Virus record (IMG/VR): IMGVR_UViG_3300043436_002205 | Source of the DNA: a virus | Lineage: Duplodnaviria > Heunggongvirae > Uroviricota > Caudoviricetes | Reading direction: 5' to 3' (one strand) | DNA: 64,000 bases | Shown: in pieces, positions 8,216-26,314 of the stretch | Numbering within the stretch: the stretch's first letter is position 1 | Layout of the letters: each line of letters opens with the position of its first letter | Notes under the pieces: model-generated | Told to the model about the DNA's origin: nothing | Database searches by the model: none | What the model saw: the letters and a program-made list of their open reading frames with translations, nothing else | Position numbers and translations under genes: made by a program

Positions 8216-8238
8216 ATGAAAAAGAGTGCACTTTCCTA

Positions 8239-8296
8239 TTTACATTCATTTAGAATCAGTATATTCTAATAATGTAAGGAACGAAAGGAACATCCG
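8239..8296 (+). promoter_or_regulatory. conserved early/middle promoter copy 1 (TTTACA-N6-TAGAAT-cagtat-ATTCTA, shared leader AATGTAAGGAACGAAAGGAA)
   Basis: One of six near-identical intergenic elements, each ending at an ATG. It contains a -35-like hexamer, a palindrome, and an RBS. Confidence 0.55.
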
Positions 8297-8482
8297 ATGT
8301 TTGTACTCACTCTTGCTGCTGACTACGAAGGTGAAACCCTTCTAGGCGTATACTCGTCTCGTGAACTCGCAGAAGCTGCTTCGCAACAGTATCTGGTTGA
8401 TGCTGAACGTGATCTGCCATCTTATGAGCAGTTCGTTGTTCGTGAAGTCGCAGTTGATGCACCTGCAGAATATCGCTTCTAA
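8297..8482 (+). CDS. hypothetical small protein
   Basis: ORF immediately downstream of promoter copy 1. Confidence 0.45.
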   Translation: MFVLTLAADYEGETLLGVYSSRELAEAASQQYLVDAERDLPSYEQFVVREVAVDAPAEYRF

Positions 8483-8492
8483 GGAGAATCAG

Positions 8493-8654
8493 ATGTACAA
8501 GGTCTACGCACACTACGAAGAGTTCGATCGTTACGGCGATCGACTCGAGTCTTACGACATGTTTAGAGCAGACACAAAAGAAGAGGTCGAAAAGATCGTT
8601 GAAGGTCTCGACAAAGAGTACTATGTTTTTATTGAAATCGCAAAGGTGATCTAA
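8493..8654 (+). CDS. hypothetical small protein
   Basis: AGGAGA RBS 5 nt upstream of the ATG. The listed ORF at 8361 has an unsupported N-extension. Confidence 0.4.
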   Translation: MYKVYAHYEEFDRYGDRLESYDMFRADTKEEVEKIVEGLDKEYYVFIEIAKVI

Positions 8655-8655
8655 G

Positions 8656-9021
8656 ATGACTTGGAACCTGTTTCTTGATGACGAACGTAACCTCGAGGAT
8701 GCCACTTGGGCACCTTGGCAGGTTCGCGAGAAGTATCGTAACGAAGAGTGGGTGATCTGCCGCAATTTTTATGAAGTTGTTATAGCTGTTAGGACGAGAG
8801 GAATGCCATCATATATTTCATTTGATCACGATCTTGGTCAAGATGAACCCACCGGTCACGATGTCGCTAAACGTATTATGTATTGGGATATGAATGATAA
8901 GCGCTACCCGCTTCCAGACAACTTTGACTTCTACGTCCACTCACAAAACCCTATCGGCAAAGCAAACATCGAAGGCTTGCTGAACAACTATCTGAGGATT
9001 ATAAATGCTAATCGTATTTGA
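8656..9021 (+). CDS. hypothetical protein
   Basis: 121-aa ORF, tightly spaced to its neighbours. Confidence 0.45.
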   Translation: MTWNLFLDDERNLEDATWAPWQVREKYRNEEWVICRNFYEVVIAVRTRGMPSYISFDHDLGQDEPTGHDVAKRIMYWDMNDKRYPLPDNFDFYVHSQNPIGKANIEGLLNNYLRIINANRI

Positions 9022-9451
9022 CTTGGACGGAACACTCGCTAACATCGAGCATCGTTTGGACTATGTTCGTAGCAAGCCTAAGAACTGGGCTGCATTTGAT
9101 GCTGGCATTCCGAATGATAAAGTGAACCGATTTGTTGCGGAAGCCTTTCACTCTCTAAGTGCTGCTAGGAACACCATTGTCCTAGCGAGCGGTCGCAACG
9201 AGCGCAGTCGTGAAGCCACAGTCGCATGGTTGACTAAGAACAACCTGCATACGTGGGACAAGCTCTACATGCGTCCCGCAGATGACTTCCGTGGTGATGA
9301 TATTGTAAAGCGTGAAATGCTGGATCAAATCATCTCTGACTTTGGTAAGAAGCCAGACATGGTGTTTGACGATCGTCCTCGCGTGGTTCGCATGTGGCGT
9401 GATGCTGGTATCTTTGTGTTTAACGTCTATCAAGGTGAGGAGGACTTCTAA
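9005..9451 (+). CDS. HAD-family polynucleotide 3'-phosphatase (phosphatase domain of T4 Pnk, as a stand-alone gene)
   Basis: HAD motif I FDLDGTL, SGR motif, and a C-terminal DDRPRVVRMWRDAG matching T4 Pnk DDRTQVVEMWRRIG. Confidence 0.7.
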   Translation: MLIVFDLDGTLANIEHRLDYVRSKPKNWAAFDAGIPNDKVNRFVAEAFHSLSAARNTIVLASGRNERSREATVAWLTKNNLHTWDKLYMRPADDFRGDDIVKREMLDQIISDFGKKPDMVFDDRPRVVRMWRDAGIFVFNVYQGEEDF

Positions 9452-9775
9452 TGGGTAAACATATCAAAACTCAACTGGACTACGATCTAATCGAAACTCT
9501 TGCACAGGAGTTGCATCGAGTGGATCCAGATAATGCTAAACTGAAACACTATCTGGCAATGGATAACTTTGAAGGTGGAGAGCTGCGTAAGGCAGTTACA
9601 AAGGTGAGCAAATGATTGACACAGCAGGCGCATATATTCTTATTCTAATCAGCTCTTATAACGGAGCTGCTATTACAACACTGGAATTCCCTAATTATGA
9701 TTCTTGCAAATCTGCTATTACACAGCTTGAGCCGGTGCGCGCCTTGGAAGGATATTGTATTGCAAAGGAAGTAAA

Positions 9776-10024
9776 ATGACTGACGAAGAACTGGTGAAGC
9801 GGCTGCGGAAGCGGCAAGAGTTTGAGTCTATTGACGGGTACAAGCGGATTGAGTGGAAAGATGAAGATGCTCTCGAAGCCGCCGACCGCATCGAAGAACT
9901 AGAGGACAATCTGGCGAAGGCCGTCGGGGGTCTTAATGCAATCTATGTTTGGGGAGAAGACACGTATGCAAGAGATATGGCCCGCACCACGCTGGGCGAG
10001 ATTGCGGGAAAGAAGACATGGTAA
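9776..10024 (+). CDS. hypothetical protein
   Basis: ORF in the 9755 frame. The ATG at 9776 (MTDEELVKR) is the preferred start. Confidence 0.35.
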   Translation: MTDEELVKRLRKRQEFESIDGYKRIEWKDEDALEAADRIEELEDNLAKAVGGLNAIYVWGEDTYARDMARTTLGEIAGKKTW

Positions 10025-10314
10025 GTAACGAAGAACTAAAATCTCCAATTAATGCCTTCCAACAGTTAATGGCAATTACAGCAGAAGAATCGGGCGAATT
10101 AACTCAAGTCTGCATGAAAATTATGCGTAAGTATGATAACATGGAAGATATGTCTAAAGACAAATATAGGTATCAACTAGTTGAAGAAGCAGGTGATGTG
10201 CTTTGTATGATTAAACTAATGGTAGAACACGGCGTCTTGACTAATGATGAATTAGATGATAGAGTAGATGTAAAGCGAAATAAACTTAAAACTTGGAGTA
10301 ATTTAATTAAATGA
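10018..10314 (+). CDS. mazG: MazG-like nucleoside triphosphate pyrophosphohydrolase
   Basis: MazG-domain signature (AITAEESGELTQ...EEAGDVLCMI). Start taken at the ATG overlapping the upstream stop (ATGGTAA). Confidence 0.75.
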   Translation: MVSNEELKSPINAFQQLMAITAEESGELTQVCMKIMRKYDNMEDMSKDKYRYQLVEEAGDVLCMIKLMVEHGVLTNDELDDRVDVKRNKLKTWSNLIK

Positions 10315-10622
10315 CCAAATATGTAATCGTAACTGCTATCTCGTCTTACCGTATGCGGTATTGTATTCCTGTAGATGAACTGCAGGAATTGAACGTTGAA
10401 GTTCCTGTCGAAGGACGTGAGATCGAATGGGCTGAAGACTGTGTTACCTGTGACGAGGTAGTAGAGTTTTCTCAGAAGCACGTTGGCGAGACTATCATCG
10501 ACTCGGAGATTCTCACCGAAGAACAGATGCTCGAGAAGTTCGACGCTGACAACGACTATCTTAAAGATTGGACTCGTGAGAAGAAGGTCGAATACGTTCG
10601 CAATTGGAAAAATATTTCCTAA
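10311..10622 (+). CDS. hypothetical acidic protein
   Basis: 103-aa ORF. Confidence 0.45.
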   Translation: MTKYVIVTAISSYRMRYCIPVDELQELNVEVPVEGREIEWAEDCVTCDEVVEFSQKHVGETIIDSEILTEEQMLEKFDADNDYLKDWTREKKVEYVRNWKNIS

Positions 10623-10648
10623 AAAATCGTGGTCAGTGCACTTTCCTA

Positions 10649-10707
10649 TTTACATTCGTTTAGAATCAGTGTATTCTAATAATGTAAGGAACGAAAGGAA
10701 ACTGACC
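10649..10707 (+). promoter_or_regulatory. conserved early/middle promoter copy 2
   Basis: TTTACA, then TAGAAT-cagtgt-ATTCTA, then the shared leader. Near-identical to copy 1, including the upstream GTGCACTTTCC. Confidence 0.55.
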
Positions 10708-10914
10708 ATGATGACCTTCAACGAACACAACGAAGCTACCAACTCCATCAAGCCGGTTATGATCCATAAGACTTTCAAAGGTTACATGGTCTTTACCCCC
10801 GAGGGTCGTCTGCTCGACAACTTCACCTCAGCCGGTCCTTTCGTGGACTTCGAAGCTGCTAAGCGTAACGCCGAAACGAATGTCGGTATGGCAATGAACT
10901 GGAGTGACTTCTAA
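10708..10914 (+). CDS. hypothetical small protein
   Basis: The ATG follows the shared leader. The listed ORF at 10483 would read through the promoter element. Confidence 0.45.
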   Translation: MMTFNEHNEATNSIKPVMIHKTFKGYMVFTPEGRLLDNFTSAGPFVDFEAAKRNAETNVGMAMNWSDF

Positions 10915-11225
10915 TGACCGCTGTAATGATCCCCGTCGTCTTTCTTATCGTACTCGTTGTGTACGGTGCAATCGAAGATCTTGTGCTAGGAAAAGCAGAA
11001 TGACTTGTTCTTCGTGTAACAGTGACTGCAACCAGGGTCGTGCCTGCCCAAGCCGAAGTAGTATTGAAAGAGTAGGCTTCCTTCGGATTAAGTGGTCCGG
11101 TTTTCATTGGTATCGTGCCGAAGATTTTGAAGAAGTCACTGATGGTTACAGCTATGCAGATGGTGCCATCGTGTTGGGTTTGTTTGTCTATCGGTATCGT
11201 GTATGGCGCAAAGCAAAGATTAAAA

Positions 11226-11417
11226 ATGACTGACGAAAAACAATACGAAGTGGCGAATGGTCTCTGGATTGGTTCTAAATTTGGAGACCTCCGCCGCGAA
11301 CGAGAGAAGCTTATGAAGAAACTCGTTCAAGATAATGACGCTTCGGTAAAGCCACGAATTCGTGAACTCACTCTTGAGATGACAGAGTATCTATCGAGTC
11401 GAAAAAGGAACACCTAA
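11226..11417 (+). CDS. hypothetical small protein
   Basis: Internal ATG (MTDEKQY...) of ORF 11115..11417. Its stop overlaps the rnlA start. Confidence 0.35.
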   Translation: MTDEKQYEVANGLWIGSKFGDLRREREKLMKKLVQDNDASVKPRIRELTLEMTEYLSSRKRNT

Positions 11418-12559
11418 TGCACTACGCCTTTCCTATCATACGCACCATCGAAGACGTCCTTCCTCACATCGAAGGTCGTCCTGAGTTCGTTGTGGCAGAA
11501 CGTGAAGGGTATACCATCGTCAACTATGTGGTGGCGATGGCTGACACCTTTGATATGACTGGCCCCGATGACCTTGGTGGCGCGATCCGCCGTGAATGCC
11601 GTGGTCTTATCTTTGATGCTGATGGTAACCTGATGAGCCGCCCGTTTCACAAGTTCTTCAACGTGAACGAACGTGAAGAGACTCAAGCACATCGGTTGGA
11701 TCTCAGTGTTTTGTTTGATCACGTGATCATGGAAAAGCTCGATGGTTCGATGATCCGTCCTATCTTGGTCGATGGTTACCTTCGTCTTGCTACCAAGATG
11801 GGCGTGACTGAAGTGGCTATGCAGGCTGAGACCTGGCTTGCTGCTCAGGACCCTTCGTTGAACGAATGGCTTCGTCAGTGTGTACACGACTCGGTGACTC
11901 CGATCTTTGAGTGGGTAAGCCCGTTCAACCAGATCGTGTTGGCATACGAAGAAGCAGACCTCGTGTATCTTGGTACTCGTGACAACGCAACCGGTGCGTA
12001 TGTAATGGATAAGTCTTGTCCGTTCTCCACTGTTCCTCGTTATGGTAGTGTAGAAGGCAACCTTGCTGACTACATTAGCCGTCAGCGCGGTGCAGAAGGT
12101 CGTGAGGGTGACATCATTCGTTTTGCTGATGGCCATATGGTTAAGGTCAAGAATGATTGGTATGTGCGTATCCACAAGACTGTGGATCGTATCGTGTTCG
12201 ACCGTAACATCGTTGCTCTTATCCTCAACGAGGAAATGGACGACGTGATGCCGATGCTACCTGTCATTCAGGCAAACCGTGTTCGTAACTTTGAGGTTCG
12301 TTTTGCAGAGCGGCTTCATGCTGTCGTAGAAATCTACGATCGCTACTGGAACACCGTGGTCGCAAGCGGTCTCGACCGCAAGCGTTACGCTTTGGAGTGG
12401 ATGCCGTCCATCAAGGACAACGACTCATTCGCTCCTAACTATGTGTTTGGGCGTTTCGCTGGCCGTGACGGTCGCGAGATGATCCTTGATCATATCGAAA
12501 AGCAATTGTCGTCTAACGTCAAGTGGGATGAATGCGCAACTTGGATGGGAATGAAGTAA
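11417..12559 (+). CDS. rnlA: RNA ligase 1 (T4 RnlA-like)
   Basis: KxDG motif EKLDGSM. Blocks ECRGLIFD, FHKFFNVNE, SPFNQIVLAYEE, EGDIIRFADGHMVKVKNDWYV parallel T4 Rnl1 ([50 protein letters not shown]). Confidence 0.75.
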   Translation: MHYAFPIIRTIEDVLPHIEGRPEFVVAEREGYTIVNYVVAMADTFDMTGPDDLGGAIRRECRGLIFDADGNLMSRPFHKFFNVNEREETQAHRLDLSVLFDHVIMEKLDGSMIRPILVDGYLRLATKMGVTEVAMQAETWLAAQDPSLNEWLRQCVHDSVTPIFEWVSPFNQIVLAYEEADLVYLGTRDNATGAYVMDKSCPFSTVPRYGSVEGNLADYISRQRGAEGREGDIIRFADGHMVKVKNDWYVRIHKTVDRIVFDRNIVALILNEEMDDVMPMLPVIQANRVRNFEVRFAERLHAVVEIYDRYWNTVVASGLDRKRYALEWMPSIKDNDSFAPNYVFGRFAGRDGREMILDHIEKQLSSNVKWDECATWMGMK

Positions 12560-12802
12560 ATGACTTATTGGGCTACACTATGGTACTCTGGTGCGGTCGT
12601 GATGCAGCTTGGCTATGAAGGTCAAACTGCCGACGAGTGTTTGTCACTCACGCGAACGATGACGTTAGACCTTGAGCAGAGTTATGCGGAACCGGAAAAT
12701 ATCGATCCGCAAACTTTGTTCATGTTTCCGACGAATGAATTCGCCGTGAGCTGCGAGATGGAAGAGCTCGGCATCGATGAAAAATACGCTAAAGAGAATT
12801 GA
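12560..12802 (+). CDS. hypothetical protein
   Basis: 80-aa ORF with an ATGA-type overlap to the upstream gene. Confidence 0.4.
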   Translation: MTYWATLWYSGAVVMQLGYEGQTADECLSLTRTMTLDLEQSYAEPENIDPQTLFMFPTNEFAVSCEMEELGIDEKYAKEN

Positions 12803-12805
12803 AAG

Positions 12806-13039
12806 ATGGTCGAATTTGTAGATGTAGCAATTAGCGACCTTGTTTCAGTTACAAAGTTCCTTCGCAGCATCAATCCATCCTTTAAGGATAAGCTCGTTGT
12901 AGGTATTGAAAAACCACAAAGCATGGACCGAAGCGTGGTGTTTCATCTGTCTTCAAAAGAAGACGTAGAAGAAGACATCATCTTTATGCTATGTGCCGAA
13001 TATATTCTTGAACATCCCTATTGGAAACAAAATAAATAG
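12806..13039 (+). CDS. hypothetical protein
   Basis: 77-aa ORF. Confidence 0.4.
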   Translation: MVEFVDVAISDLVSVTKFLRSINPSFKDKLVVGIEKPQSMDRSVVFHLSSKEDVEEDIIFMLCAEYILEHPYWKQNK

Positions 13040-13166
13040 TTCTTTAATAGGATGGGAGTGATTGCATGTCTTTGGTACAGGAACTAGAAGATCTCATAAG
13101 AAGAACTGGCTCTCATCACGACAGAGAGATCCTGACGAGAGTTTTAGAACAACTAAGTAAATCTGC

Positions 13167-13192
13167 AAAAAGCTCTTCGTGAAATTTCACGA
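13167..13192. other. perfect 13-bp inverted repeat hairpin (GCTCTTCGTGAAA/TTTCACGAAGAGC)
   Basis: Seen directly. An A-run precedes it on the plus strand, and a T-run follows it on the minus strand. Confidence 0.4.
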
Positions 13193-13699
13193 AGAGCGCA
13201 AGGTTGTAAGAAAGTAACTTTAGAATAAGAGGGCGATATGGCAACGAAGCAAGAATATGCAAAATGGTGTATGATGCTAATCGAGGGTGAGGATTTCATG
13301 GTGGATGATATCTTTGAAGCAATGCACGATGATGGTTTTATTGACGAAGCTCAAGAATGGGTATATGATGAAGACGAAGATAACTGAAGCAGAGATGCTG
13401 AATGATATTCTTTGGTTGCTTACTATCGTAAAGCAAGTATCCGACTATCGGATTGATAATGAAAAACTAAAAGAGATACGAGAAAAATATGAATGAATTT
13501 GTTGTTCTAGGCATTGTGTTATTGCTCGTAGCTACATTCATTCGTGGCGCGATCATCGTGTTTTCAAAAAATTTTTGGTTAGCGCTAGCGCTATTCTTTT
13601 TAATCCTTCCTCTCTTTGTACTATGGGCATTCGTCGAAGGATTTTTTAACTGGTCGGACTGATAAATAAGTTAGGTATTTCAATAGGATTGGAGCATAA

Positions 13700-13951
13700 A
13701 TGATTACAATATACGGTAAGGACAACTGCCACTGGTGCCAAGAAGCAAAAAAGATCGCCGAGCAATACGACTTAAAGTACGAATACAAGAATACCGGGTT
13801 TACAGATAACCGCGATGAAATGTTTGAACGTTATCCAGAAGTAAAGACGGTTCCGCAGATCTGGTGGGATGAGAGACACATCGGAGGATACTCGGAATTC
13901 GTAAAAGAGATCGAAGATACACTAGGAAATTACGGCCAGTCAGCTTTTTGA
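13700..13951 (+). CDS. nrdC: glutaredoxin (NrdC-like)
   Basis: CHWC active site. TVPQIW...IGGY glutaredoxin signature. About 83 aa. Confidence 0.8.
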   Translation: MITIYGKDNCHWCQEAKKIAEQYDLKYEYKNTGFTDNRDEMFERYPEVKTVPQIWWDERHIGGYSEFVKEIEDTLGNYGQSAF

Positions 13952-13952
13952 G

Positions 13953-13993
13953 TTGACATTCTGATAGAATCAGTATACTCTAGTAAATATCAT
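13953..13993 (+). promoter_or_regulatory. conserved early/middle promoter copy 3 (divergent: TTGACA-ttctga-TAGAAT-cagtat-ACTCTA)
   Basis: Same architecture as the other copies but with a degenerate palindrome and leader. Confidence 0.45.
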
Positions 13994-14248
13994 ATGGAGA
14001 TAGACATGGCTACCAAGACAGAAGCTTCTGACTATGAGATTCATCTTGTTACTCTTATGAGGGACTATCATCTAACTCTATCGGAAGCACTCAGCTTTGA
14101 CTTTGAAGCAGAATGCATCGATATATCAAACGTCTTTGATCCGTGCGAATTTCTTGAAGAAAAACTTGTTGACCTTGAAAAGGTCATGTACTACATGATG
14201 GTATGGACCGGCCAAGAGCTGGATATTGAACTGAAGAAGATCCAATAA
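13994..14248 (+). CDS. hypothetical acidic protein
   Basis: ORF downstream of promoter copy 3. Confidence 0.45.
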   Translation: MEIDMATKTEASDYEIHLVTLMRDYHLTLSEALSFDFEAECIDISNVFDPCEFLEEKLVDLEKVMYYMMVWTGQELDIELKKIQ

Positions 14249-14592
14249 TGACTATGCATTTGATTCGAGGGATGACTTCCCTCAACACTCGTAAGAGAAA
14301 GCCAAAGACCAAAACGAAGCGTATGATCGAAGCCGAAGCGGAACACGCTCGGTTTCTTGCTCGTGCTGGCTATAAAGGAAACTCAAAGGACTACCGTTAC
14401 GAGATTCCGGACTACAACACTGGCCCTCGAGTCACAAGCGATGTTGTTGCCGCCAACGGCGCAAAGAAAGCTAGCGTTAAGTACACAGGCAATGAGATCC
14501 TCGGCATTGCGACCACGCACAAGTCCAACATGGTTCCTATTCGTAAAGACAATAAACAGGCTGCGGTTGATGCAGCGAGTATGAGAAGATAG
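14248..14592 (+). CDS. hypothetical basic protein
   Basis: 114-aa ORF. Confidence 0.45.
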   Translation: MTMHLIRGMTSLNTRKRKPKTKTKRMIEAEAEHARFLARAGYKGNSKDYRYEIPDYNTGPRVTSDVVAANGAKKASVKYTGNEILGIATTHKSNMVPIRKDNKQAAVDAASMRR

Positions 14593-14595
14593 ATA

Positions 14596-15423
14596 TTGAA
14601 GAGATTACTGTACCAGTTTCACGTCGACTTTAAAGATAGAAGTAAGAATGTTTTCGGCGAAAGCTTTGATCGAGTTTCGGTTGGAGAATACTGGAAACAT
14701 AGCACAACTTTTGCAAAAGCATACTGTGAGAGATATGGTATCGACTATAAGTTTGAGTTCCTAAGTGAAGAGGAATATAAACCTTGGGCATTTGGCGTTG
14801 AGACCTTTGATAAGTATAGAGCAGTTCAACATCTAAAGGATTACGATCAGGTTCTATACGTAGACACCGACGTGATCATACACCAAAATGCCGATAACAT
14901 CTTTGAAGAATTTATGCATAGCGGACTCGTCGGTTACTTTGATAATGTCGCTGATAGATATATTCATAGGGATAGCAGCTCGCTCGGAAAGATAAATTCT
15001 GGTGTCATACTGTTTAATAACACAAATAGAAATTTAAAGAACGGACATGGAAAACTATATAACATGGATATATTTTCTGGTAACTATCCATGCAGAGGAA
15101 CTCCATCTGAAACTCATATACTTGAGAAATTTTCAAAGGGCAAATGGTGGGAGCATTGGGAAGAAAAGCATTCTGAAAACGTAATTTATCTAAAGAACAA
15201 AACAGCTTCAGATGAAAATTTCTTTCACTACATTGTGAACTTATATACTCTACTTCCATTCCATATCGGAAGAAAGTATAACTATCGCAGAAAATTTAGC
15301 GAAAAGCCATTCTTTAGAAGTGGATCGGAAATGATTGAGGTGTCTCCAAGCTTTATTCATTATGAAGGCGCATCTAAAAAACTAATTTATAAAGACTTCG
15401 AAGAAGGTTTATTTTTTAAATGA
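14596..15423 (+). CDS. GT8-like nucleotide-diphospho-sugar glycosyltransferase (GT-A fold)
   Basis: DxD motif in LYVDTDVIIHQ, and INSGVILFNN resembling the GT8 NSGVM motif. Confidence 0.5.
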   Translation: MKRLLYQFHVDFKDRSKNVFGESFDRVSVGEYWKHSTTFAKAYCERYGIDYKFEFLSEEEYKPWAFGVETFDKYRAVQHLKDYDQVLYVDTDVIIHQNADNIFEEFMHSGLVGYFDNVADRYIHRDSSSLGKINSGVILFNNTNRNLKNGHGKLYNMDIFSGNYPCRGTPSETHILEKFSKGKWWEHWEEKHSENVIYLKNKTASDENFFHYIVNLYTLLPFHIGRKYNYRRKFSEKPFFRSGSEMIEVSPSFIHYEGASKKLIYKDFEEGLFFK

Positions 15424-16355: not shown

Positions 16356-16391
16356 TCTAAGATAAATATCTCTACAAGATGGAGATATTTT

Positions 16392-16958
16392 ATGATAGTT
16401 GCTGGTATTGATTATAGTTTGACGAGCCCCGCTATATGCGTTCACGAGGGCGATGAATGGAACGTGAAAAACTGCCGTTTCTACTATGTCGTACATCGAG
16501 AGAAATCAGTCGTTGTCTCTGGGCAGTTCTATGGAGAGATGTATCAAGAGTATCTTTGCGACGCGCATCGATACGATAACCTCTCAAAGTGGTCACTCAA
16601 GACTCTCACATCAAACAACGTAACTAAGTGCTTCATTGAAGGATACGCCTTCAATGCTGTCGGCCGAGTCTTTCAGATAGCAGAGAACACCGGCCAACTA
16701 AAGTATCGTCTTTGGAAAGACAAGATTCCCTTTCAAGTGTTTGCGCCACCCGAGATCAAAAAGTTTGCTACCACGAAGGGAAACGCAAACAAAGAAAAGA
16801 TGTATGAAAGCTTTTTTGAAGAAACAATGGTTGACATTCGCGTAGAATTGGATATATTAAATAAGAATCAATGGAATCCGGTTTCGGACATTGTTGATTC
16901 CTACTATATCGCAAAGCTAGGCTTCATAAAGGAAAAAGAAAATGTGGATCAAGCGTAA
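16392..16958 (+). CDS. RuvC-like Holliday junction resolvase (RNase H fold), putative
   Basis: GIDYSLTSPAICV N-terminus resembles RuvC GIDPG. Internal E (IEGYAF). C-terminal DIVDSYYIA resembles RuvC DAADALAIA. Confidence 0.45.
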   Translation: MIVAGIDYSLTSPAICVHEGDEWNVKNCRFYYVVHREKSVVVSGQFYGEMYQEYLCDAHRYDNLSKWSLKTLTSNNVTKCFIEGYAFNAVGRVFQIAENTGQLKYRLWKDKIPFQVFAPPEIKKFATTKGNANKEKMYESFFEETMVDIRVELDILNKNQWNPVSDIVDSYYIAKLGFIKEKENVDQA

Positions 16959-17991: not shown

Positions 17992-18005
17992 GGAGATACT
18001 ATATT

Positions 18006-18284: not shown

Positions 18285-18294
18285 GGAAACAGTT

Positions 18295-18555
18295 ATGAAT
18301 TATGATAAAGACGATATCATTAAAAAGCTAAACGAAACGATCTGCAAGGTCGTTTTCACAAAAGCAAACGGTGAGACTCGAGTGATGCACTGCACTCTAT
18401 CAAATGAGTTTCTGCCAGCTCAAGTAGATCTTGAAGAAGCAATTCAAAAGAAGATTCCAAACCACACTGTGCTTGCGGTCTGGGATGTTGAAGCAAACGG
18501 ATGGCGTTCTTTCCGTTGGGACTCTCTTAAAGAGTTCAGCACAGTAGACAAATAA
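18295..18555 (+). CDS. hypothetical protein
   Basis: 86-aa ORF. Confidence 0.4.
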   Translation: MNYDKDDIIKKLNETICKVVFTKANGETRVMHCTLSNEFLPAQVDLEEAIQKKIPNHTVLAVWDVEANGWRSFRWDSLKEFSTVDK

Positions 18556-19508: not shown

Positions 19509-19842
19509 AATCATAAAATTCCCTCGAATGAAACTCGACTCACCACCACAATCACTCGAAGAGTTATCCGAAAAACTTACGGAATACAGAACGAGTTTTT
19601 CGAACGACGTCGCAGAAAGTCTTTGGAACCTTGTTCTTATCGAGATGGTAAGGTCTGGGTGCAGGTTCGAACAAGACACCGAAAGGTACTACCCGTCCAT
19701 CATTCTTCTTCTCGAATCAATTCGCTCGCTTCATTTAATGGCAAGCGACATATATCATCCTCTGCAAGACTTTGCAGATGAATTTATAGAAAATGAAGAA
19801 ATCGACAAAGAAATGATTGACATTGGTGAATTACTAGAGTAG
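19501..19842 (+). CDS. hypothetical acidic protein
   Basis: 113-aa ORF. Confidence 0.4.
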   Translation: MAEIIKFPRMKLDSPPQSLEELSEKLTEYRTSFSNDVAESLWNLVLIEMVRSGCRFEQDTERYYPSIILLLESIRSLHLMASDIYHPLQDFADEFIENEEIDKEMIDIGELLE

Positions 19843-19884
19843 TATAGACTCATAAGATCCAAATATAAGAGAAACACATACAAC

Positions 19885-20745
19885 ATGGCAATACTCATTG
19901 ACTTCAACCAAGTGATCCTAGCATCACTATTTGTCGGTATCGGCAATCACCACAACATTGACTTGGATGAAAATCTTCTTCGTCATATGTTTCTAAACTC
20001 AATCCGTTCAAACCGAAAAAAGTTTCATAAAGAGTTCGGTGAGATCGTTATCTGCGCCGACGGTAAGAACTCTTGGCGGCGAGAAACCTTTCCTTACTAC
20101 AAAGCAAACCGCAGAAAGTCTCGTGAAGAGTCTGAGCTCGATTGGAACGAACTGTTTCGAATGATCAATACCATTCGTTCTGAGCTTAAAGATCACTTCC
20201 CTTATAAGGTCATTCATATCGACCACTGTGAAGCAGACGACATCATCGGTGCTGTCGTCCATGAGCATGGAACAGAACTAAACATCGGCGCTGAGCAGTT
20301 CCTTATCCTTTCGGGTGATAAAGACTACATCCAATTGCATAAGTATGCAAACGTAAAGCAGTACGATCCGGTTCGCAAGAAATGGGTTCAGAATTCAGAT
20401 CCCGATAAATACCTCATGGAACATATCATTAAAGGCGACAGCGGTGACGGTGTACCGAACATTCTATCTCCAGACAACTGTCTTGCGATTGGTGAACGCC
20501 AAAAAATGATGACTGCGAATCGCCTGGCCAATTTTTTGAAAGGCCCTGATCACATGGATGAAAATACAGTTAGAAACTATCATCGTAATAAGATGATGAT
20601 TGATCTGACTGAGATTCCAGATGCTTATAAAAAGAAAATCCTTGAAGACTACAGCGTGGATAAAGAAGTTGGGAGATCTCAACTATTTGATTACTTTATG
20701 AAGAACAAACTTAAAAATTTAATCACTGATATACAGGACTTTTGA
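19885..20745 (+). CDS. rnh: RNase H / 5'-3' flap exonuclease (T4 rnh-like, FEN family)
   Basis: Conserved acidic clusters (CEADDIIG, SGDKDYIQL) and an N-terminus like T4 RNase H (IDFNQVILAS). Confidence 0.8.
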   Translation: MAILIDFNQVILASLFVGIGNHHNIDLDENLLRHMFLNSIRSNRKKFHKEFGEIVICADGKNSWRRETFPYYKANRRKSREESELDWNELFRMINTIRSELKDHFPYKVIHIDHCEADDIIGAVVHEHGTELNIGAEQFLILSGDKDYIQLHKYANVKQYDPVRKKWVQNSDPDKYLMEHIIKGDSGDGVPNILSPDNCLAIGERQKMMTANRLANFLKGPDHMDENTVRNYHRNKMMIDLTEIPDAYKKKILEDYSVDKEVGRSQLFDYFMKNKLKNLITDIQDF

Positions 20746-21192
20746 ATGTTACTCTCCCTATCGGAAATTGTAAATAAAGCGGCAGAACTAAAGACGAATC
20801 AAGAAAAGATCGAATGGCTTCGTAAGAATGATTCTGTTCCACTTCGAACAATACTTAAGAACACCTATGATAAGAGTGTGGAATTCCTTATTCCAAACAC
20901 TCCTCCGCCTTGGAAGAAGAACAGCTACATCGGCGTTGAAGGTATGCTTTTGAAAGAAGCAAGACGTCTTCGTATCTTTGTGAAGGGTGGCGGCTACGAT
21001 ACTCTTAATCAAGTCAAACGCGAAAACCTTTTCATCAGTCTTTTAGAAGATATTGATAATGGTGATGCAGAACTTTTGTGTAAGATGATTGCACAAAAAC
21101 CATTGACAGGTCTGCCTCGAAGTGTTATAGTACAATCGTTCCCAGGATTAATCGAAGGAGTAAAAGAGGAACAAGATGGCAAAGTCGTTTAA
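20746..21192 (+). CDS. hypothetical protein
   Basis: 148-aa ORF immediately after rnh. Confidence 0.45.
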   Translation: MLLSLSEIVNKAAELKTNQEKIEWLRKNDSVPLRTILKNTYDKSVEFLIPNTPPPWKKNSYIGVEGMLLKEARRLRIFVKGGGYDTLNQVKRENLFISLLEDIDNGDAELLCKMIAQKPLTGLPRSVIVQSFPGLIEGVKEEQDGKVV

Positions 21193-21331
21193 GAAATTCC
21201 GCGAGCAGTGGGATGATGATTGGAATGACGATTCTGATGACAAGGATCGTGAACTTCAGAAACGTCGCGATCAGCGTCGAAAAAAGACCGCTGAGAAATT
21301 TTCTCGATTTGATGAAAAGGCTGATGATTAA
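21176..21331 (+). CDS. small charged protein (51 aa), tentative
   Basis: GAAGGAG RBS upstream. Bridges a gap and overlaps its neighbours. Confidence 0.3.
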   Translation: MAKSFKKFREQWDDDWNDDSDDKDRELQKRRDQRRKKTAEKFSRFDEKADD

Positions 21332-21963
21332 TGTCTAAGGTGATACTATCTGACGTCGATGGTTGTATGGTTGTTTGGAAAAACGAATTCAACAATTTCA
21401 TGGAGAGACACGGTTTCGAAAACGTTGTCGAAAGAGATAATAATATTCATCCGTGGTTGTATCGCGACGACGTATATGAGATTGAAGATCTCTATGGTAT
21501 CAGTAAACAGCAAGCTGACTTTATGGTCGATATGTTTAACGAGAGTATCCACCTAGGCCATCTACCTCCTCTGAAAGATGCGATTAAGTACATTCGAAAG
21601 CTACACGAAGAGCACGGATATGTATTCCATTGCATCACTGCCTGTGGTACTCATCATCGCGTACATGATCTTCGCCTCAAGAATCTTAACGATCTCTTTG
21701 GTTCTAATGTGATTAAACGGCTTGTATGTACAGAGTCAAGTAGGGCAAAGAGACCAATCCTTGAAGAGTACAAAGACTCTAGACTCTACTGGGTAGAGGA
21801 TAAAGTATCGAATGCTATCATGGGGCACGAACTTGGCCTGCGATCAATTCTCATCAATCATTCATACAACCTAAATTACATTGAACATCCATTTGATGAA
21901 CCTCAGTACCTAAGAGTAAATAATTGGAAACAAATCTACGATATCGTCGTAGACTCAGAGTAG
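21331..21963 (+). CDS. HAD-like hydrolase, putative
   Basis: N-terminal LSDVDGCM resembles HAD motif I. Confidence 0.35.
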   Translation: MSKVILSDVDGCMVVWKNEFNNFMERHGFENVVERDNNIHPWLYRDDVYEIEDLYGISKQQADFMVDMFNESIHLGHLPPLKDAIKYIRKLHEEHGYVFHCITACGTHHRVHDLRLKNLNDLFGSNVIKRLVCTESSRAKRPILEEYKDSRLYWVEDKVSNAIMGHELGLRSILINHSYNLNYIEHPFDEPQYLRVNNWKQIYDIVVDSE

Positions 21964-22004
21964 TACAGGAATAAATACAATTAAGCAGATCTATATCATG
22001 ATGT

Positions 22005-22034
22005 GGCGATCTTGCGGGATCGCCCTTTGTTATT
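22005..22034 (+). terminator. rho-independent terminator
   Basis: GGCGATC-ttgcg-GGATCGCC stem followed by CTTTGTTATT. Confidence 0.6.
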
Positions 22035-22047
22035 AACAGGAGACTAA

Positions 22048-22281
22048 ATGCCGGTATATAGCTTTAGAGATACTGAAACTAAAGAAGAATACGAAGCTAC
22101 AATGCGATACTCTGAGCTTGATGAGTATCTAAAAAACAACTCCCACATAGTACAAATATTTACTCGATTCCCGGGGACAGTTGACTCGGTACGCATCGGC
22201 ATTCGCAAGCCCGATGATAATTTTCGTGATGTGTTGAAAAAAGCAAAGGTTCATAAACATAACACAATCAATGACTTTTAA
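22048..22281 (+). CDS. hypothetical protein
   Basis: AGGAGA RBS upstream. 77 aa. Confidence 0.4.
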   Translation: MPVYSFRDTETKEEYEATMRYSELDEYLKNNSHIVQIFTRFPGTVDSVRIGIRKPDDNFRDVLKKAKVHKHNTINDF

Positions 22282-22297
22282 GTCATAAGGAGGCCGC

Positions 22298-23047
22298 ATG
22301 GTAGTATCACGTCGTCTATCTCGAAAAGAAAAAAGAAGACATGAAAGAAATCTAGATAATATAGTGAACGTAGTTAATCAGAAGTTCACAATGAAAAAGA
22401 TACAACCAATTACTTCAACTCAAGAGATGCTATTCGACGATTATAAACAAGGATACAACATAGCGGCCATCGGAACAGCAGGAACAGGTAAAACAATGTG
22501 TGCTCTCTATCTCGCGTTGAACGACGTGATGGAGACAAAGAACTACGAAAAGGTCATAGTCATTCGATCTGCGGTTCAGACTCGCGATCAAGGATTTATG
22601 CCAGGTAGTCTTAAGGAAAAAATAGCATACTATGAGACGCCATATATAGATATAGTAAACGATTTGTTTGGAAGATCTGATGGCTATAGCATTATGAAAC
22701 AGCAAGGATGCATCGAATTCATGAGCTCTTCGTTTGTTCGTGGTCTTACTTTCGATAACTCAGTCATCGTAGTTGACGAATGCCAGAACATGACATACGA
22801 AGAAATAAGATCAATTATGACTCGTGTTGGCGAGTCTTCTAAGATTATTTTCTGTGGTGATACGAAGCAGGACGACCTTCGAAATTCTAAGAACCGATTG
22901 GATCGCTCTGGACTATCGAGCTTTATCAATGTGTTGAAAGAGATAAGAGAGTTTAAAACGATAGAATTCACAGTCGATGACATCGTAAGATCTGGTCTCG
23001 TGAAGTCGTTTATCCTCGCAGAAGAAAAAGTTTTAGACTACGCGTAA
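22298..23047 (+). CDS. phoH: PhoH-like ATPase
   Basis: Walker A GTAGTGKT. PhoH block VVDECQNMTYEEIRSIMTRVGESSKIIFCGDTKQDD. Confidence 0.85.
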   Translation: MVVSRRLSRKEKRRHERNLDNIVNVVNQKFTMKKIQPITSTQEMLFDDYKQGYNIAAIGTAGTGKTMCALYLALNDVMETKNYEKVIVIRSAVQTRDQGFMPGSLKEKIAYYETPYIDIVNDLFGRSDGYSIMKQQGCIEFMSSSFVRGLTFDNSVIVVDECQNMTYEEIRSIMTRVGESSKIIFCGDTKQDDLRNSKNRLDRSGLSSFINVLKEIREFKTIEFTVDDIVRSGLVKSFILAEEKVLDYA

Positions 23048-23062
23048 AGAGGAGAATTACGT

Positions 23063-23368
23063 ATGCCAGCGGTTGCCGTCTGTACTGTTGATACGATCAC
23101 CACCGGTCACGGTTGTGACGGCACCGCTCTCATACAAGGTTCTCTTCAGACAAAGGTTACGATAGGTGGAAAGAGAGTCGCTGTGCAAGGTGATGCAATT
23201 GCACCTCATACTATTAATGCGGGACCAGTTTGTGTCCCGCATTCTTCTGTTATCAATGCGGGTTCTTCAAAAGTAACGATAGCAGGAATACCGGTTGCGC
23301 GTGTAGGAGACTCGGCCGACGCTGGGTCTGTGGCAACTGGGTCAGGTAAAGTATCATGCGGAGGGTGA
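23063..23368 (+). CDS. PAAR-repeat protein (spike-tip-like)
   Basis: Repeats VTIGGKRVAVQGD and VTIAGIPVARVGD match the PAAR motif (PAARVGD). About 100 aa, as in T4 gp5.4. Confidence 0.55.
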   Translation: MPAVAVCTVDTITTGHGCDGTALIQGSLQTKVTIGGKRVAVQGDAIAPHTINAGPVCVPHSSVINAGSSKVTIAGIPVARVGDSADAGSVATGSGKVSCGG

Positions 23369-24040
23369 ATGTTTCAACACGTAGATCATGGGTTGGTGCT
23401 TCCTGTTATCACTAGGAAGACTACCGAAAGTGGAAGAAAGTATTATACGCCAGAAGGCAATGCGTATCCGTCAATCACGACGGTTTTGTCTGTTATGGAC
23501 AAAGATGGCCTAATCGAATGGCGTAAGAGAGTCGGCGAAGAAGAAGCGAACCGTATCTCTAAACAAGCCGCAGGGCGAGGTACCGCAGTACACAAGCTAG
23601 CCGAGGACTATCTCAATAACGAACCAGAATGGCAAAAAGATCATATGCCGGGGAACCTATTCTCGTTCAATCAGATCAAAAAGATACTTGATGAAAGAGT
23701 AAACAATGTATGGTTCCAAGAAACCTTTCTATACAGCGATAGCCTAAAGTGCGCAGGTCAGACTGACTGTATAGCCGAGTTCGACGGCGAACTCTCTATC
23801 ATAGATTTCAAAACATCAAGAAAAGAAAAGAAGAAGGAATGGATCCTTGGGTATTTCATTCAGGCTGCGTTCTATGCGGCTGCTTTCTACGAGATGACTG
23901 GCATACCTATCAAGCAAGCTGCCATAGTCATAATGGTTGACGACTCAGAGCCACAAGTCTTTAAAGTCAACACATACGATTACTTGCCAGAGTTCTTAAA
24001 GGTTCGAAAAAAGTACAAACTTCTTCATGAAAACGGTTGA
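23369..24040 (+). CDS. PD-(D/E)xK superfamily nuclease, putative
   Basis: Core D...E.D.K arrangement (QTDCIAEFDGELSIIDFKTS), and the YPSITTVL motif seen in phage exonuclease-like proteins. Confidence 0.5.
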   Translation: MFQHVDHGLVLPVITRKTTESGRKYYTPEGNAYPSITTVLSVMDKDGLIEWRKRVGEEEANRISKQAAGRGTAVHKLAEDYLNNEPEWQKDHMPGNLFSFNQIKKILDERVNNVWFQETFLYSDSLKCAGQTDCIAEFDGELSIIDFKTSRKEKKKEWILGYFIQAAFYAAAFYEMTGIPIKQAAIVIMVDDSEPQVFKVNTYDYLPEFLKVRKKYKLLHENG

Positions 24041-24092
24041 CATTCGTTCAGAATCAGTATAGACTGTTCTATATCAAACGAAAGGATACACC
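24037..24092 (+). promoter_or_regulatory. conserved early/middle promoter copy 4 (degenerate palindrome)
   Basis: TTGACATTCGTTCAGAATCAGTAT...AACGAAAGGATACACC then ATG. Confidence 0.45.
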
Positions 24093-24323
24093 ATGTACGT
24101 CGCCGAACTCGACATCTCCGCCGAAGCCTCGCAAGAATCCATTCATCAGTTCGCAACCGAACACGGCTGCACCGCTCTTCTTATCATGGAATACGGCCCT
24201 GCCGGCGGTAACCCTCTCTATCAGTTCTCGTCTAACAGTCAAGACTGCCTCGAGGAACTCGTCTCTCAAGTACTAGGTGACATCGACTATCAACATATCC
24301 TCGACGCAATCCGAGAAATCTAA
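24093..24323 (+). CDS. hypothetical acidic protein
   Basis: ORF downstream of promoter copy 4. Confidence 0.45.
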   Translation: MYVAELDISAEASQESIHQFATEHGCTALLIMEYGPAGGNPLYQFSSNSQDCLEELVSQVLGDIDYQHILDAIREI

Positions 24324-24330
24324 AAAGTAG

Positions 24331-24388
24331 TTGACATTCGTTTAGAATCAGTGTATTCTAATAATGTAAGGAACGAAAGGAACCTCCT
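24331..24388 (+). promoter_or_regulatory. conserved early/middle promoter copy 5 (canonical)
   Basis: TTGACATTCGTTTAGAATCAGTGTATTCTAATAATGTAAGGAACGAAAGGAACC then ATG. Confidence 0.55.
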
Positions 24389-24748
24389 ATGAAATTCTCC
24401 AAGTTTGACCGTACCAATCTGAATGCTCTTCGTGCCGAGATGGCCGTTCTTCTGAATAAGTACGGCGTTGACTCGAACCTTGAGTTTGAAGTCGGCAATA
24501 TGAAGTTCAGCGCGAACGAAGTTGAGATTAAAGTCAAAGCGAAGGTCAAAGGTGCAAAGACTCTCACCAATGTGATCCTTGAGTCTCGTGTAGCTGCTCT
24601 CGGCATCAAGCTGAAGAATAAAGCAGGTGACGAGCTCGTTGACTATAACACTCGCGCCCCGAAGATGCCGTTCGTCTATCGTAACGCTGCAGACGGTAAG
24701 CTCTATAAGTGCACCGAAATGATGACTAAGATCCGCTTCGCAGCTTAA
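24389..24748 (+). CDS. hypothetical protein
   Basis: ORF downstream of promoter copy 5. Confidence 0.45.
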   Translation: MKFSKFDRTNLNALRAEMAVLLNKYGVDSNLEFEVGNMKFSANEVEIKVKAKVKGAKTLTNVILESRVAALGIKLKNKAGDELVDYNTRAPKMPFVYRNAADGKLYKCTEMMTKIRFAA

Positions 24749-24762
24749 TCGAAAGAAACATC

Positions 24763-24963
24763 ATGAAATACGCAATCGTTCTCTTTGCTTTGACTATGTC
24801 GGCTTGCTCTTCGATGGACCCCGAGCTGAAAGCTCATCTTGAAGCCGAAGCTGACTTTGCTCGCCATCAGTATCATACTCAGCAAGCTCATGAAAAGGAT
24901 TACGATCCTGAATATGTAGACGACTGCTACTATCACGAAGAACTCGTCTGTGAATTCGAATGA
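24763..24963 (+). CDS. small lipoprotein
   Basis: Signal peptide with a lipobox (LTMSAC|SS). Confidence 0.5.
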   Translation: MKYAIVLFALTMSACSSMDPELKAHLEAEADFARHQYHTQQAHEKDYDPEYVDDCYYHEELVCEFE

Positions 24964-25163
24964 CGCTGTTTCAGTCTAAGTCAATCAATACGAATGGACA
25001 CCAGTTCATTGGATATGTCTGGAAGTTTCGTGGATGCCAAGTAGAGATGCATGCGAATGGCTTTTCTTGTAACTGCAAGAAGCGCCACTTTGCAAAGTGC
25101 AATCACGTAAAGAGCGTAGAACTTGGCATTCTAGGTGTAAATCAGATTAAGTATAAACTATAG
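24960..25163 (+). CDS. SWIM-type zinc-finger-like small protein
   Basis: CxCx(n)CxH pattern (FSCNCKKRHFAKCNH). Confidence 0.35.
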   Translation: MTLFQSKSINTNGHQFIGYVWKFRGCQVEMHANGFSCNCKKRHFAKCNHVKSVELGILGVNQIKYKL

Positions 25164-25376
25164 AGGAAATCCTATGTTCACGACTATTGTTGCATGGATC
25201 GCATTTGTTGTTGGATCTTTTTTATCTTCATTGCGCTATTGGACAGCATTTTTCAGTTTACAGTAAGTGACTTTCAGCGTAGAATGAAAATACGTAAGCA
25301 TTATTTCACTGGGCGGATGGGGTTCATTCTCATTGCCTGGTTCTTGTCAGGAATGCATCTTTTTGGATAAATCATC

Positions 25377-25934
25377 ATGAATCTTTTTATTTTGGATAAA
25401 GACCCAGTTGTCGCAGCGCAACTGCAGTGTGATAAGCACGTAGTCAAAATGATCGTGGAGTCGGCACAGATGTTGTCGACTGCGCATCGTATGCTTGATG
25501 GTGTTCTTAAACGTGCGCCATCGAAGTCGGGTAAGACGATGTCAAAGCATTGGACTCTTCCTGATGAGCGCGAACATATTCTATACAAAGCAGTTCACAT
25601 GGCGCACCCTTGTACCGTATGGACTACTCAGTCGAATAACAACTACACTTGGCACTGGGTTCACTTCGCTGCTCTCTGCGACGAGTACACCTATCGTTAT
25701 GGCAAGGTTCATTCGACTGACAAACTTCTTCGCGAAAAGCTGAAGGAACTACCACGAAACATTCCTATCGGATATCTAACTCAGCAGCCGCTCGCAATGA
25801 AAGCTAATCCTGAGTGCATGTTCCCTAACGATCCTGTTCGTTCTTATCGAGAGTTCTATCAGACGAAACAAGCAAGGTTCAAAATGGTGTGGACTAAACG
25901 TGATATCCCTGAGTGGTTTAAAGTAGCAGCTTAA
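25377..25934 (+). CDS. hypothetical protein
   Basis: 185-aa ORF. Confidence 0.45.
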   Translation: MNLFILDKDPVVAAQLQCDKHVVKMIVESAQMLSTAHRMLDGVLKRAPSKSGKTMSKHWTLPDEREHILYKAVHMAHPCTVWTTQSNNNYTWHWVHFAALCDEYTYRYGKVHSTDKLLREKLKELPRNIPIGYLTQQPLAMKANPECMFPNDPVRSYREFYQTKQARFKMVWTKRDIPEWFKVAA

Positions 25935-26233
25935 TGAGATACGCGATTGCAGAAGAAGATCTAGGTTTCTTTCTGGGCGCGTTCCAGAAGTATGGAATCT
26001 TTGCTAAGAATGATGTCATAGGTCTCTCAAAGGCAATCGCATTTGATACCGAGGATGAAGCGAATCTATACATCGACGATTTTCTCGGACGAGATCGTGG
26101 AGTCTGGAAAGTAATTCCGGTCGACACGAAAGACGAATACGTTAGTGTCGTATACCTAGTGAAGAATGGTTATGGAAAGTATACTCATAAGATGATTGAT
26201 TTCATTCCTATGACTTCTACAACTATGCACTAA
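25934..26233 (+). CDS. hypothetical protein
   Basis: 99-aa ORF with an ATGA overlap. Confidence 0.4.
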   Translation: MRYAIAEEDLGFFLGAFQKYGIFAKNDVIGLSKAIAFDTEDEANLYIDDFLGRDRGVWKVIPVDTKDEYVSVVYLVKNGYGKYTHKMIDFIPMTSTTMH

Positions 26234-26248
26234 TTTTTTCATTTAATG

Positions 26249-26314
26249 GTTGACATTCGTTTAGAATCAGTGTATTCTAATAATGTAAGGAACACAAACT
26301 GAAAGGTCTACAGA
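26249..26314 (+). promoter_or_regulatory. conserved early/middle promoter copy 6 (canonical palindrome, variant leader)
   Basis: TTGACATTCGTTTAGAATCAGTGTATTCTAATAATGTAAGGAACACAAACTGAAAGG...ATG. Confidence 0.55.

Follow-up and report, generated by a model that had tools for sequence, protein, structure and literature searches.

Predicted early promoters with a near-invariant spacer box, a candidate GcrA site, in an uncultivated T4-like phage

The stretch of DNA analysed here, 64,000 nucleotides of the IMG/VR virus record IMGVR_UViG_3300043436_002205 (hereafter the window), contains six copies of a short intergenic element which the original prediction, made from the sequence alone, had described as promoter-operator modules built around the palindrome TAGAAT-N6-ATTCTA. 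A 205,027-bp metagenomic contig (ENA ERZ27272069:k141_409682) matches the window along part of its length at 100% identity; of this contig 84 kb, i.e. the window plus 10 kb beyond each end, was read. The window encodes a gp23 homologue (28841-30151, minus strand) with 66% identity to those of Sinorhizobium phages phiM12 and phiN3 and ~64% to those of Stenotrophomonas DLP6 and Melnitz, together with portal, sheath, tail tube, terminase and prohead protease genes (Pfam matches for portal, sheath and terminase). The late-type motif TATAAATA occurs eight times, against 2.85 expected, always on the minus strand in the structural module, and several copies lie just 5' of structural gene starts, e.g. 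37 nt before gp23. The plus-strand half (1-28.8 kb) holds small ORFans and genes with early-type functions, among them Tad3, an RNA-repair set (DNA ligase, cREC, PNKP-type phosphatase and Rnl1-like), glutaredoxin, PhoH, an exonuclease, sugar-nucleotide enzymes and GapR. Judged by gene content and strand, the window is part of a T4-like phage genome of ~205 kb in which the early genes are opposed to the late strand. Among cultured phages no DNA-level relative was found by megablast, and blastn returned only a 96-nt patch of the ligase gene in Phaeobacter phage MD18.

Scanning the window with the core pattern TTGACATTCNNNNAGAATCAGTNTA, allowing up to three mismatches, gave seven matches, all on the plus strand, against 0.01 expected by chance, confirming that the repeat is real. 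Six of these, of the form TTGACATTC-N4-AGAATCAGT-N-TAnnnT, lie 20-30 nt upstream of small genes and are collected as cassettes 1-6 in Table 1; the seventh is a weak or uncertain member that falls within a glycosyltransferase gene, at its 3' end, with the next ATG (4195) 86 nt further on, and a decayed eighth relative is probably not a promoter of the kind represented by the six (class I). All six occupy gaps of ~40-90 nt between plus-strand open reading frames (ORFs), with a purine-rich ribosome-binding site and an ATG downstream, and each comprises TTGACA or TTTACA, a 17-bp spacer and TATTCT, TATACT or TAGACT, within the 16-18 bp spacing of sigma70 promoters. The near-identity over ~60 bp that had been proposed holds for four copies, three of which have 97, 79 and 73% identity over 66 nt to the copy at 8225-8290 (97% for cassette 2, including 14 nt upstream), and does not extend to cassettes 3 and 4, which have only the 29-bp promoter core in common with the rest. 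Similarly, only three copies have the shared 23-nt leader in exact form; cassette 6 (the position of which is corrected by one nucleotide from 26249, the other five sites being as first given) retains its first ~16 nt, and cassettes 3 and 4 have other leaders. The palindrome is perfect in four copies, has one mismatch in cassette 3 and lacks its right arm in cassette 4; taken as a bare pattern it is not significant, with nine matches (up to two mismatches) against 5.4 expected. Promoters and coding sequences are packed extremely closely: the -35 hexamer of cassette 4 embeds the stop codon of the upstream gene (TGA, 24038-24040) and a stop codon (13949-13951) abuts the -35 of cassette 3. The two TTTACA-type cassettes, and these alone, also carry a perfect 8-bp palindrome, AGTGCACT, which holds GTGCAC, 7 nt upstream of the -35 (8225-8232 and 10635-10642).

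Table 1. Coordinates of the promoter cassettes, of two related sites and of the late-type motifs in the window (SD, Shine-Dalgarno sequence; aa, amino acids).
Feature	Position	Strand	-35	Spacer box	-10	Leader, start codon and remarks
Cassette 1	8238..8299	+	TTTACA 8239-8244	TAGAATCAGT 8251-8260, GAATC 8253-8257	TATTCT 8262-8267	Predicted start ~8274; SD AAAGGAA; ATG 8297, 61-aa DUF7336-like gene; perfect palindrome at 8251; common leader at 8268
Cassette 2	10648..10710	+	TTTACA 10649-10654	10661-10670	TATTCT 10672-10677	ATG 10708, 68-aa ORF; perfect palindrome at 10661; common leader at 10678
Cassette 3	13952..14008	+	TTGACA 13953-13958	13965-13974	TATACT 13976-13981	Differing leader; GGAGA, then probable start ATG 14006; palindrome at 13965 with one mismatch
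Cassette 4	24036..24095	+	TTGACA 24037-24042	cAGAATCAGT 24049-24058	TAGACT 24060-24065	ATG 24093, 76-aa ORF; palindrome absent
Cassette 5	24330..24391	+	TTGACA 24331-24336	24343-24352	TATTCT 24354-24359	Complete common leader at 24360; ATG 24389, 119-aa ORF; perfect palindrome at 24343
Cassette 6	26249..26317	+	TTGACA 26250-26255	26262-26271	TATTCT 26273-26278	~16 nt of common leader; ATG 26315, 318-aa DUF932 protein; perfect palindrome at 26262
Weak, uncertain member	4081..4109	+	TTGACC	gAGAATCAGT 4093-4102	TACAAA (poor)	
Decayed relative	16831..16859	+	has TTGACATTC	TAGAATTGGA, GAATC -> GAATT		Within ORF
Late motifs TATAAATA	30188, 31194, 31901, 33319, 37613, 44437, 49701, 52837	-				

The search of related phages that the original prediction had suggested recovered the exact motif in 82 related stretches of IMG/VR viral contigs, compared with a single match, a chance one inside a coding region, in 185,579 bacterial and archaeal genomes; these counts make it a clade-specific phage motif, and an origin as a host promoter or host operator was rejected on them. 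For sites of the type TT[GT]AC[AC]-N17-TAnnnT in the family loci, the number of spacer mismatches to TTCNNNNAGAATCAGTN is bimodal, either 0-3 of 12 (71 unique sites) or random (mode ~9). A logo built from 107 unique family copies has an A/T-rich stretch at -44 to -40, G at -36, then TTGACATTC, gtTT and AGAATCAGT, followed by a -10 of the form TA-t-a-(C/T)-T, an A/T-rich discriminator, a purine at index 35 (counted from the first T of the -35) and a purine-rich SD. The purine at index 35 (A 70, G 30 of 107), which is flanked by T, is the likely transcription start. A SD and a co-oriented start codon follow 49-70 nt (mode 54-60) past the -35 in 82 of 105 unique copies, with a median ORF of 81 aa, and the leader is without RNA structure (z = +0.3). 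Comparison of the promoters of orthologous DUF932 genes shows GGTTGACATTC..TAGAATCAGTgTA to be invariant amid variation and indels in the DNA upstream, in the inner positions of the -10 and in the leader; the promoter of cassette 6 is kept 5' of orthologous genes in four contigs (L033, L044, L048 and L071), and the core is kept even in contigs sharing no other alignable DNA with the window.

With the -35/17 bp/TAnnnT arrangement confined to the early strand and kept in all 82 stretches while its flanks have diverged, the idea of a promoter-plus-leader regulon serving an early gene class stands, and the six elements are very probably sigma70-type early promoters fused to a leader and SD. Host RNA polymerase with its primary sigma factor would read GTTGACA as the -35, the 17-bp spacer and TAnnnT as the -10, each promoter being joined to an unstructured leader of ~20-25 nt, a SD and the start codon of a small early gene. 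Early promoters of T4-type phages are marked by G at -36, A-rich sequence at -40 to -44 and GT just 5' of -12 (PMC1524935), and those of T4 have "additional regions of consensus" (PMC2988021). The elements described here have these three hallmarks and the sigma70 -35/17/-10 architecture in common with the early promoters of T4, RB49, RB69, 44RR, Aeh1 and KVP40, and likewise are numerous, scattered 5' of small early ORFs and placed on the strand opposite the late genes, in a genome with gp23 and TATAAATA late promoters. They differ in that a near-invariant box of 9-10 bp fills the spacer, TATAAT occurs in none of 107 copies, -8 is C or T, TGn is absent and the leader length is almost fixed. There is also a resemblance to T4 middle promoters dependent on MotA and AsiA, in which a 9-bp asymmetric box lies 5' of a TAnnnT -10 and has a monomeric, sigma70-attached reader; the MotA box, (a/t)(a/t)(a/t)TGCTT(t/c)A, however, is centred at -30 and replaces the -35 (PMC2988021), whereas here the -35 is a consensus TTGACA, the box is centred at -19 and TGCTT is absent, so that the elements do not fit the definition of a MotA-dependent middle promoter.

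Other assignments were likewise set aside: promoters for an alternative sigma factor or for T7- or N4-type polymerases by the exact TTGACA-17-TAnnnT fit, TAGAAT as a second -10 by the lack of a conserved -35 17 bp upstream, and a loading site of the lambda Q type with a pause element by the position of the downstream -10-like AATAAT upstream of the predicted start. The 54-nt consensus cassette gave only non-significant matches in cultured phages, to strong sigmaA promoters of Twort- and Bastille-like phages, and literature searches with the motif strings returned only unrelated primers. Early promoters as such are ordinary; these provide a marker of ~30 bp for the early regulon and the module borders of an uncultivated, widespread clade of T4-like phages with 205-kb genomes. 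A conserved sigma70-like promoter of a different composition (TTGACATTGGTGAATTACTAGAG-TAGTAT, 19817-19845, plus strand) lies 5' of the exonuclease gene, with orthologues in L007 and L006; it lacks the -20 box, has GACTC just past the -10, and may belong to a different temporal class.

Several proteins point to the host. The GapR-like protein at 27896 (Pfam, 1e-30) has 149 homologues among cultured phages, almost all of them phages of Rhodobacter, Rhizobium, Ruegeria, Agrobacterium, Caulobacter, Brevundimonas and similar hosts; the best matches of the DNA ligase are in roseobacter, Rhodobacter and Caulobacter phages; and the nearest relatives of the DUF932 protein and of gp23 are in the Sinorhizobium phiM12 group. 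Because of these affinities an alphaproteobacterial host is likely. The early gene set in the first 50 kb of Caulobacter phage Cr30 is, in addition, very similar to that of the window.

The feature that sets this family apart is the box itself, (T)AGAATCA(GT), which is asymmetric and invariant at ~-22 to -14. Numbered from the -10, its core GAATC occupies -21 to -17, with a centre at ~-19/-20, and GAATC is an instance of GANTC, the methylation site of CcrM in Alphaproteobacteria. The position of GANTC was scanned in 218 unique -35/-10 sites, of which 92 have it starting at index 14, 12 at index 15 and 11 at index 29, with none at 18-28; it is absent across the -10, and occurs 43 times at +2 to +30 where ~22 are expected. 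On the top strand the index-14 heptamers are AGAATCA, CGAATCA, AGAATCG and CGAATCG only, so that on the bottom strand all 92 fit YGAKTCK (TGATTCT in 78, TGATTCG in 10, CGATTCT in three and CGATTCG in one). The 15 flank variants (one from L167), which come from different gene contexts, have A->C 12 times at one flank and A->G five times at the other, these being exactly the Y and K alternatives of YGAKTCK, and no other base is found; a diverged copy 9 kb to the left of the window likewise keeps C-GAATC-G with other box positions changed.

These properties recall the promoters controlled by GcrA in Caulobacter. GcrA rides on domain 2 of sigma70 and activates promoters with methylated GANTC in TGATTCG, or more broadly YGAKTCK, its sites being either "narrowly centred around -20" or scattered between +2 and +30, while the -10 is almost free of them (PMC4647560). 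The protein binds as a monomer, the PcsM box being Gm6AATC at -22 to -18 (PMC9976885), and its DNA-binding domain contacts all seven bases of TGATTCG (PMC5887438). The phage box agrees with that of PcsM in pentamer, strand and, within 1 bp, place between -35 and -10, and with Caulobacter GcrA promoters generally in its fit to YGAKTCK, its character as an asymmetric monomer site and the overall distribution of GANTC, i.e. a peak at -20, a gap at the -10 and a shoulder downstream; with the predicted start, the sites fall within the positions at which GcrA boxes are placed (-20 +/- 1, -30 +/- 2, or +5 to +30). It differs in belonging to a phage family rather than to host cell-cycle genes, and in the extra conserved bases that flank the site. 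On account of the GANTC core, the fit to YGAKTCK and the centre at ~-20, we read (T)AGAATCA(GT) as a GcrA box for use in an alphaproteobacterial host, a tentative assignment to which we give a probability of about 0.45. In this mechanism GcrA bound to sigma70 would bind the N6-methylated box as a monomer on incoming phage DNA, and would boost RNA polymerase binding and open-complex formation at the early promoters. A further step, which we regard as speculative and unlikely, is that the early promoters are gated epigenetically: packaged DNA would carry N6-methyladenine at every early-promoter GAATC, host GcrA would fire the early genes at once, and replicated, under-methylated DNA would lose the stimulation, resulting in early shut-off.

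A number of observations weigh against a GcrA box. Neither a GcrA nor a CcrM homologue was detected by tblastn in the 84 kb of the genome read or in 680 kb of related loci; the GcrA query was itself effective, in that 179 viral contigs were found to encode GcrA-like proteins. The only methyltransferase in the window is of the Methyltransf_24 family and not of the CcrM class, and there is no enrichment of GANTC either across the window or in its intergenic DNA. Two T4-like phages of known alphaproteobacterial hosts, phiM12 and Cr30, contain in their first 50 kb conserved promoter-leaders of their own, with no GANTC at -20. Conservation at the N of GANTC, and at the GT following the box, exceeds what the specificity of GcrA requires, and a small subfamily has AGAA(G/T)TGGT in place of the box, with no GANTC. 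A second class of promoters in related phages has an inverted box at ~-4, for which there is no Caulobacter counterpart and which is not a position reported for GcrA. Finally, the match to GcrA is post hoc, having been noticed after several other factor motifs were considered. The consensus sequences of LexA, CRP, Fur, NtcA, PhoB and CtrA, compared by eye, did not fit; that of IHF, with the core WATCAR, matches AATCAG on the same by-eye comparison, and was rejected because the TTR that it needs four bases further on is not conserved.

The class II promoters just mentioned, GGTTGACATT-N14/15-TA(t/g)A(c/t)T-GATTCTATAAGG (also TAnAyT-GATTCTATAAGGTAA), with the inverted box past the -10 and, in many cases, another GAATC near the SD, were found in eight relatives (L057, L049, L001, L028, L059, L048, L015 and L082) and nowhere in the window; GANTC is the common denominator of the two classes. 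The repeated cassettes of phiM12 (L084, 1-50 kb) are of the form TTGACA-N17-TAATTT-CAAATCATAGAGAGAA and those of Cr30 (L165, 1-50 kb) of the form TTTACTTT...TATAGTTCATTATAAGG, with promoters TTTACTTT...TATAGT; (A)TAAGG near the predicted start is common to both and to the family in the window.

Phages of the phiCbK type encode a GcrA homologue (PMC3556154), and so provide a precedent for alphaproteobacterial phages engaging the GcrA circuit; those phages carry the factor, whereas the present phage would carry the sites. Among the best 80 of the 179 GcrA-encoding viral contigs none belongs to the promoter family, and their 452 kb are without a class I promoter. No paper was found on this motif or on GcrA boxes in phage promoters; the early-promoter and PeSL-like nature of the elements (see below) is known in kind, and it is the near-invariant -20 box that distinguishes the family. 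Were the box a GcrA box, it would predict the Alphaproteobacteria as host class, and the phage would exploit a methylation-reading sigma cofactor instead of encoding a factor of its own, providing a testable mechanism for the activation and shut-off of early genes; loss of methylation on replicated DNA would be a plausible cause of early shut-off, a step unexplained in T4 (Hinton's review, PMC2988021). Were the epigenetic gating also true, this would be the first virulent phage to wire a whole temporal gene class to the CcrM/GcrA cell-cycle system of Alphaproteobacteria via cis sites alone. If, on the other hand, GcrA does not recognise the box, nine invariant bases in the spacer of a sigma70 promoter still call for a reader.

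Such a reader might be RNA polymerase itself, through contacts of the "uber-promoter" kind, or a clade-specific phage factor, either an activator or an early shut-off factor, acting on the same early promoters; we consider this somewhat unlikely, and clearly less probable than GcrA. The excess invariance of the box, its absence from phiM12 and Cr30 and the subfamily without GANTC all agree with such a reader, as does the restriction of the motif to one clade, absent from bacterial genomes and cultured phages, and so do the additional consensus regions of T4 early promoters and the unexplained early shut-off of T4. The GT at the end of the box could, moreover, be explained by the GT-rich stretch 5' of -12 that is itself a T4-type feature. 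Known spacer contacts of RNA polymerase are, however, weak preferences and do not extend to nine near-invariant bases, no sequence-specific DNA-binding protein was recognised among ~60 ORFs scanned in the window, and neither version explains the restriction of flank substitutions to Y and K or the placement of the site at -20. The original prediction had named two gene products as candidate readers. Homology of the first, at 27896, to GapR is confirmed, but GapR is a nucleoid protein without sequence specificity, and this makes it an unlikely reader of the box. The second, the proposed zinc-finger protein (24960-25163, plus strand), has a CxC-x9-CxH pattern (FSCNCKKRHFAKCNH) with the look of a SWIM-type zinc finger, and has no match in Pfam or PHROG.

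The possibility that the box has no reader, the cassettes being plain sigma70 promoters kept alike by recombination and gene conversion, has to be considered in the light of how these loci are arranged in related phages. In the window, the gene at 23369-24040 is followed by the promoter at 24037 with its gene (A) and then by the promoter at 24331 with its gene (B). In four relatives with 76-81% identity (L013, L006, L060 and L010) promoter-B precedes promoter-A, the blocks of homology beginning exactly at the G before TTGACA (24330 and 24036 of the window); in L025 a foreign ORF stands between two promoters and B is missing; and in L003 and L015 the ligase and the genes at 14.6-16.4 kb are absent and several blocks are reordered. 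Many contigs can be aligned with the window at the cassette alone. The cassettes, being alike, would act as recombination joints, with promoter-plus-gene modules exchanged between related phages. In this they parallel the PeSL elements, mobile regulatory cassettes of T4-type phages (Arbiol 2010; Comeau 2014; PMC2839356, PMC4122927), with which they have in common an intergenic promoter with SD and start, an A/T-rich upstream part, a concentration among ORFans and a location at insertion, deletion and order-swap junctions between related phages. The stem-loop or terminator component of PeSLs is absent here: the 60 nt upstream fold with -9.3 kcal/mol, compared with -7.8 for shuffled sequences and -12.3 for a coding control, and no terminator-like site was found beside the copies in the first 20 kb of the window, which were scanned. 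From their sequence context, then, the elements behave as PeSLs at recombination joints, yet lack the stem-loop by which PeSLs are defined. The rearrangements exactly at promoter borders, the PeSL precedent and the two copies that are 97% identical over 66 nt, non-functional upstream bases included, all agree with cassettes homogenised without any reader. Homogenisation would, however, keep all positions alike, whereas positions 9-11, 22 and 25-27 vary within and between genomes and the box varies in only ~6% of cells, and conservation persists in contigs with no other alignable DNA; we regard the absence of a reader as highly improbable.

As to the palindrome, its right arm, ATTCTA, is no more than the TATTCT form of the -10 with one A added. 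The -10 hexamers of the family are TATATT (23), TATTCT (21), TATACT (18), TAGATT (11) and others, never TATAAT; in the DUF932 promoter the -10 is TATTCT, TATACT or TATATT in different phages with the left arm constant, and cassette 3, taken by the original prediction as a degenerate copy possibly escaping regulation, has in L015 and L032 an ortholog with the perfect palindrome (TATTCT), so that nothing indicates such an escape. A perfect palindrome is present in only 19 of 107 unique copies, with arm complementarity spread evenly from 1 to 6 of 6, and the corresponding hairpin is worth only -1.4 to -2.8 kcal/mol. Since the right arm varies while the left arm plus CAGT is near-invariant, a symmetric dimer operator is not supported, and on the family alignment the palindrome is a by-product, its left arm belonging to the spacer box and its right arm to the TATTCT-A version of the -10. 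The operator model, taken as one in which a dimeric phage or host repressor would occlude the -10, is the least probable reading of all. In its favour are the overlap of four perfect 6+6 palindromes with the -10, a leaning towards the symmetric version in C at -8 (48%) and A at -6 (49%), and the fact that the stem-loops of PeSLs may be placed over the -35 and -10 boxes or between them (PMC2839356). Against it, the right arm changes freely among orthologous promoters, and its perfect form is found both with and without the common leader, giving no sign of selection for symmetry.

The early region contains further genes of note. An ORF at 18-542 (plus strand) matches Pfam Tad3 (E = 7e-39), an inhibitor of type I Thoeris, and is thus an anti-defence gene among the early genes. 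A gene set in the style of RNA repair (5228-5812, 7091-9451 and 11417-12559, plus strand) comprises a kinase-like P-loop protein, an ATP-dependent DNA ligase, a cREC_REC cyclic-phosphate receiver protein, a PNKP-type phosphatase and an Rnl1-like RNA ligase; cassettes 1 and 2 bracket part of this set, and the relatives without the ligase are L003 and L015. The early-strand genes also include one for a PAAR-motif protein (23063-23368, plus strand), adjacent to those for a PD-(D/E)XK nuclease and PhoH, and at 27896-28776 (plus strand) the GapR-like gene is followed directly by that of the Methyltransf_24 methyltransferase, the pair abutting the convergent gp23 gene. On the minus strand, a 2092-aa ORF (56146-62424) consists mostly of collagen-like Gly-X-Y repeats (GTQ/GLQ), forming an array of 9-bp period with more than 270 registers; it has globular inserts between the repeats and a C-terminal end like an intramolecular-chaperone domain, and is probably a tail fibre. 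Its length differs among near-identical contigs, the ORF being fragmented in L169 and L171 and 1903 aa long in L170.

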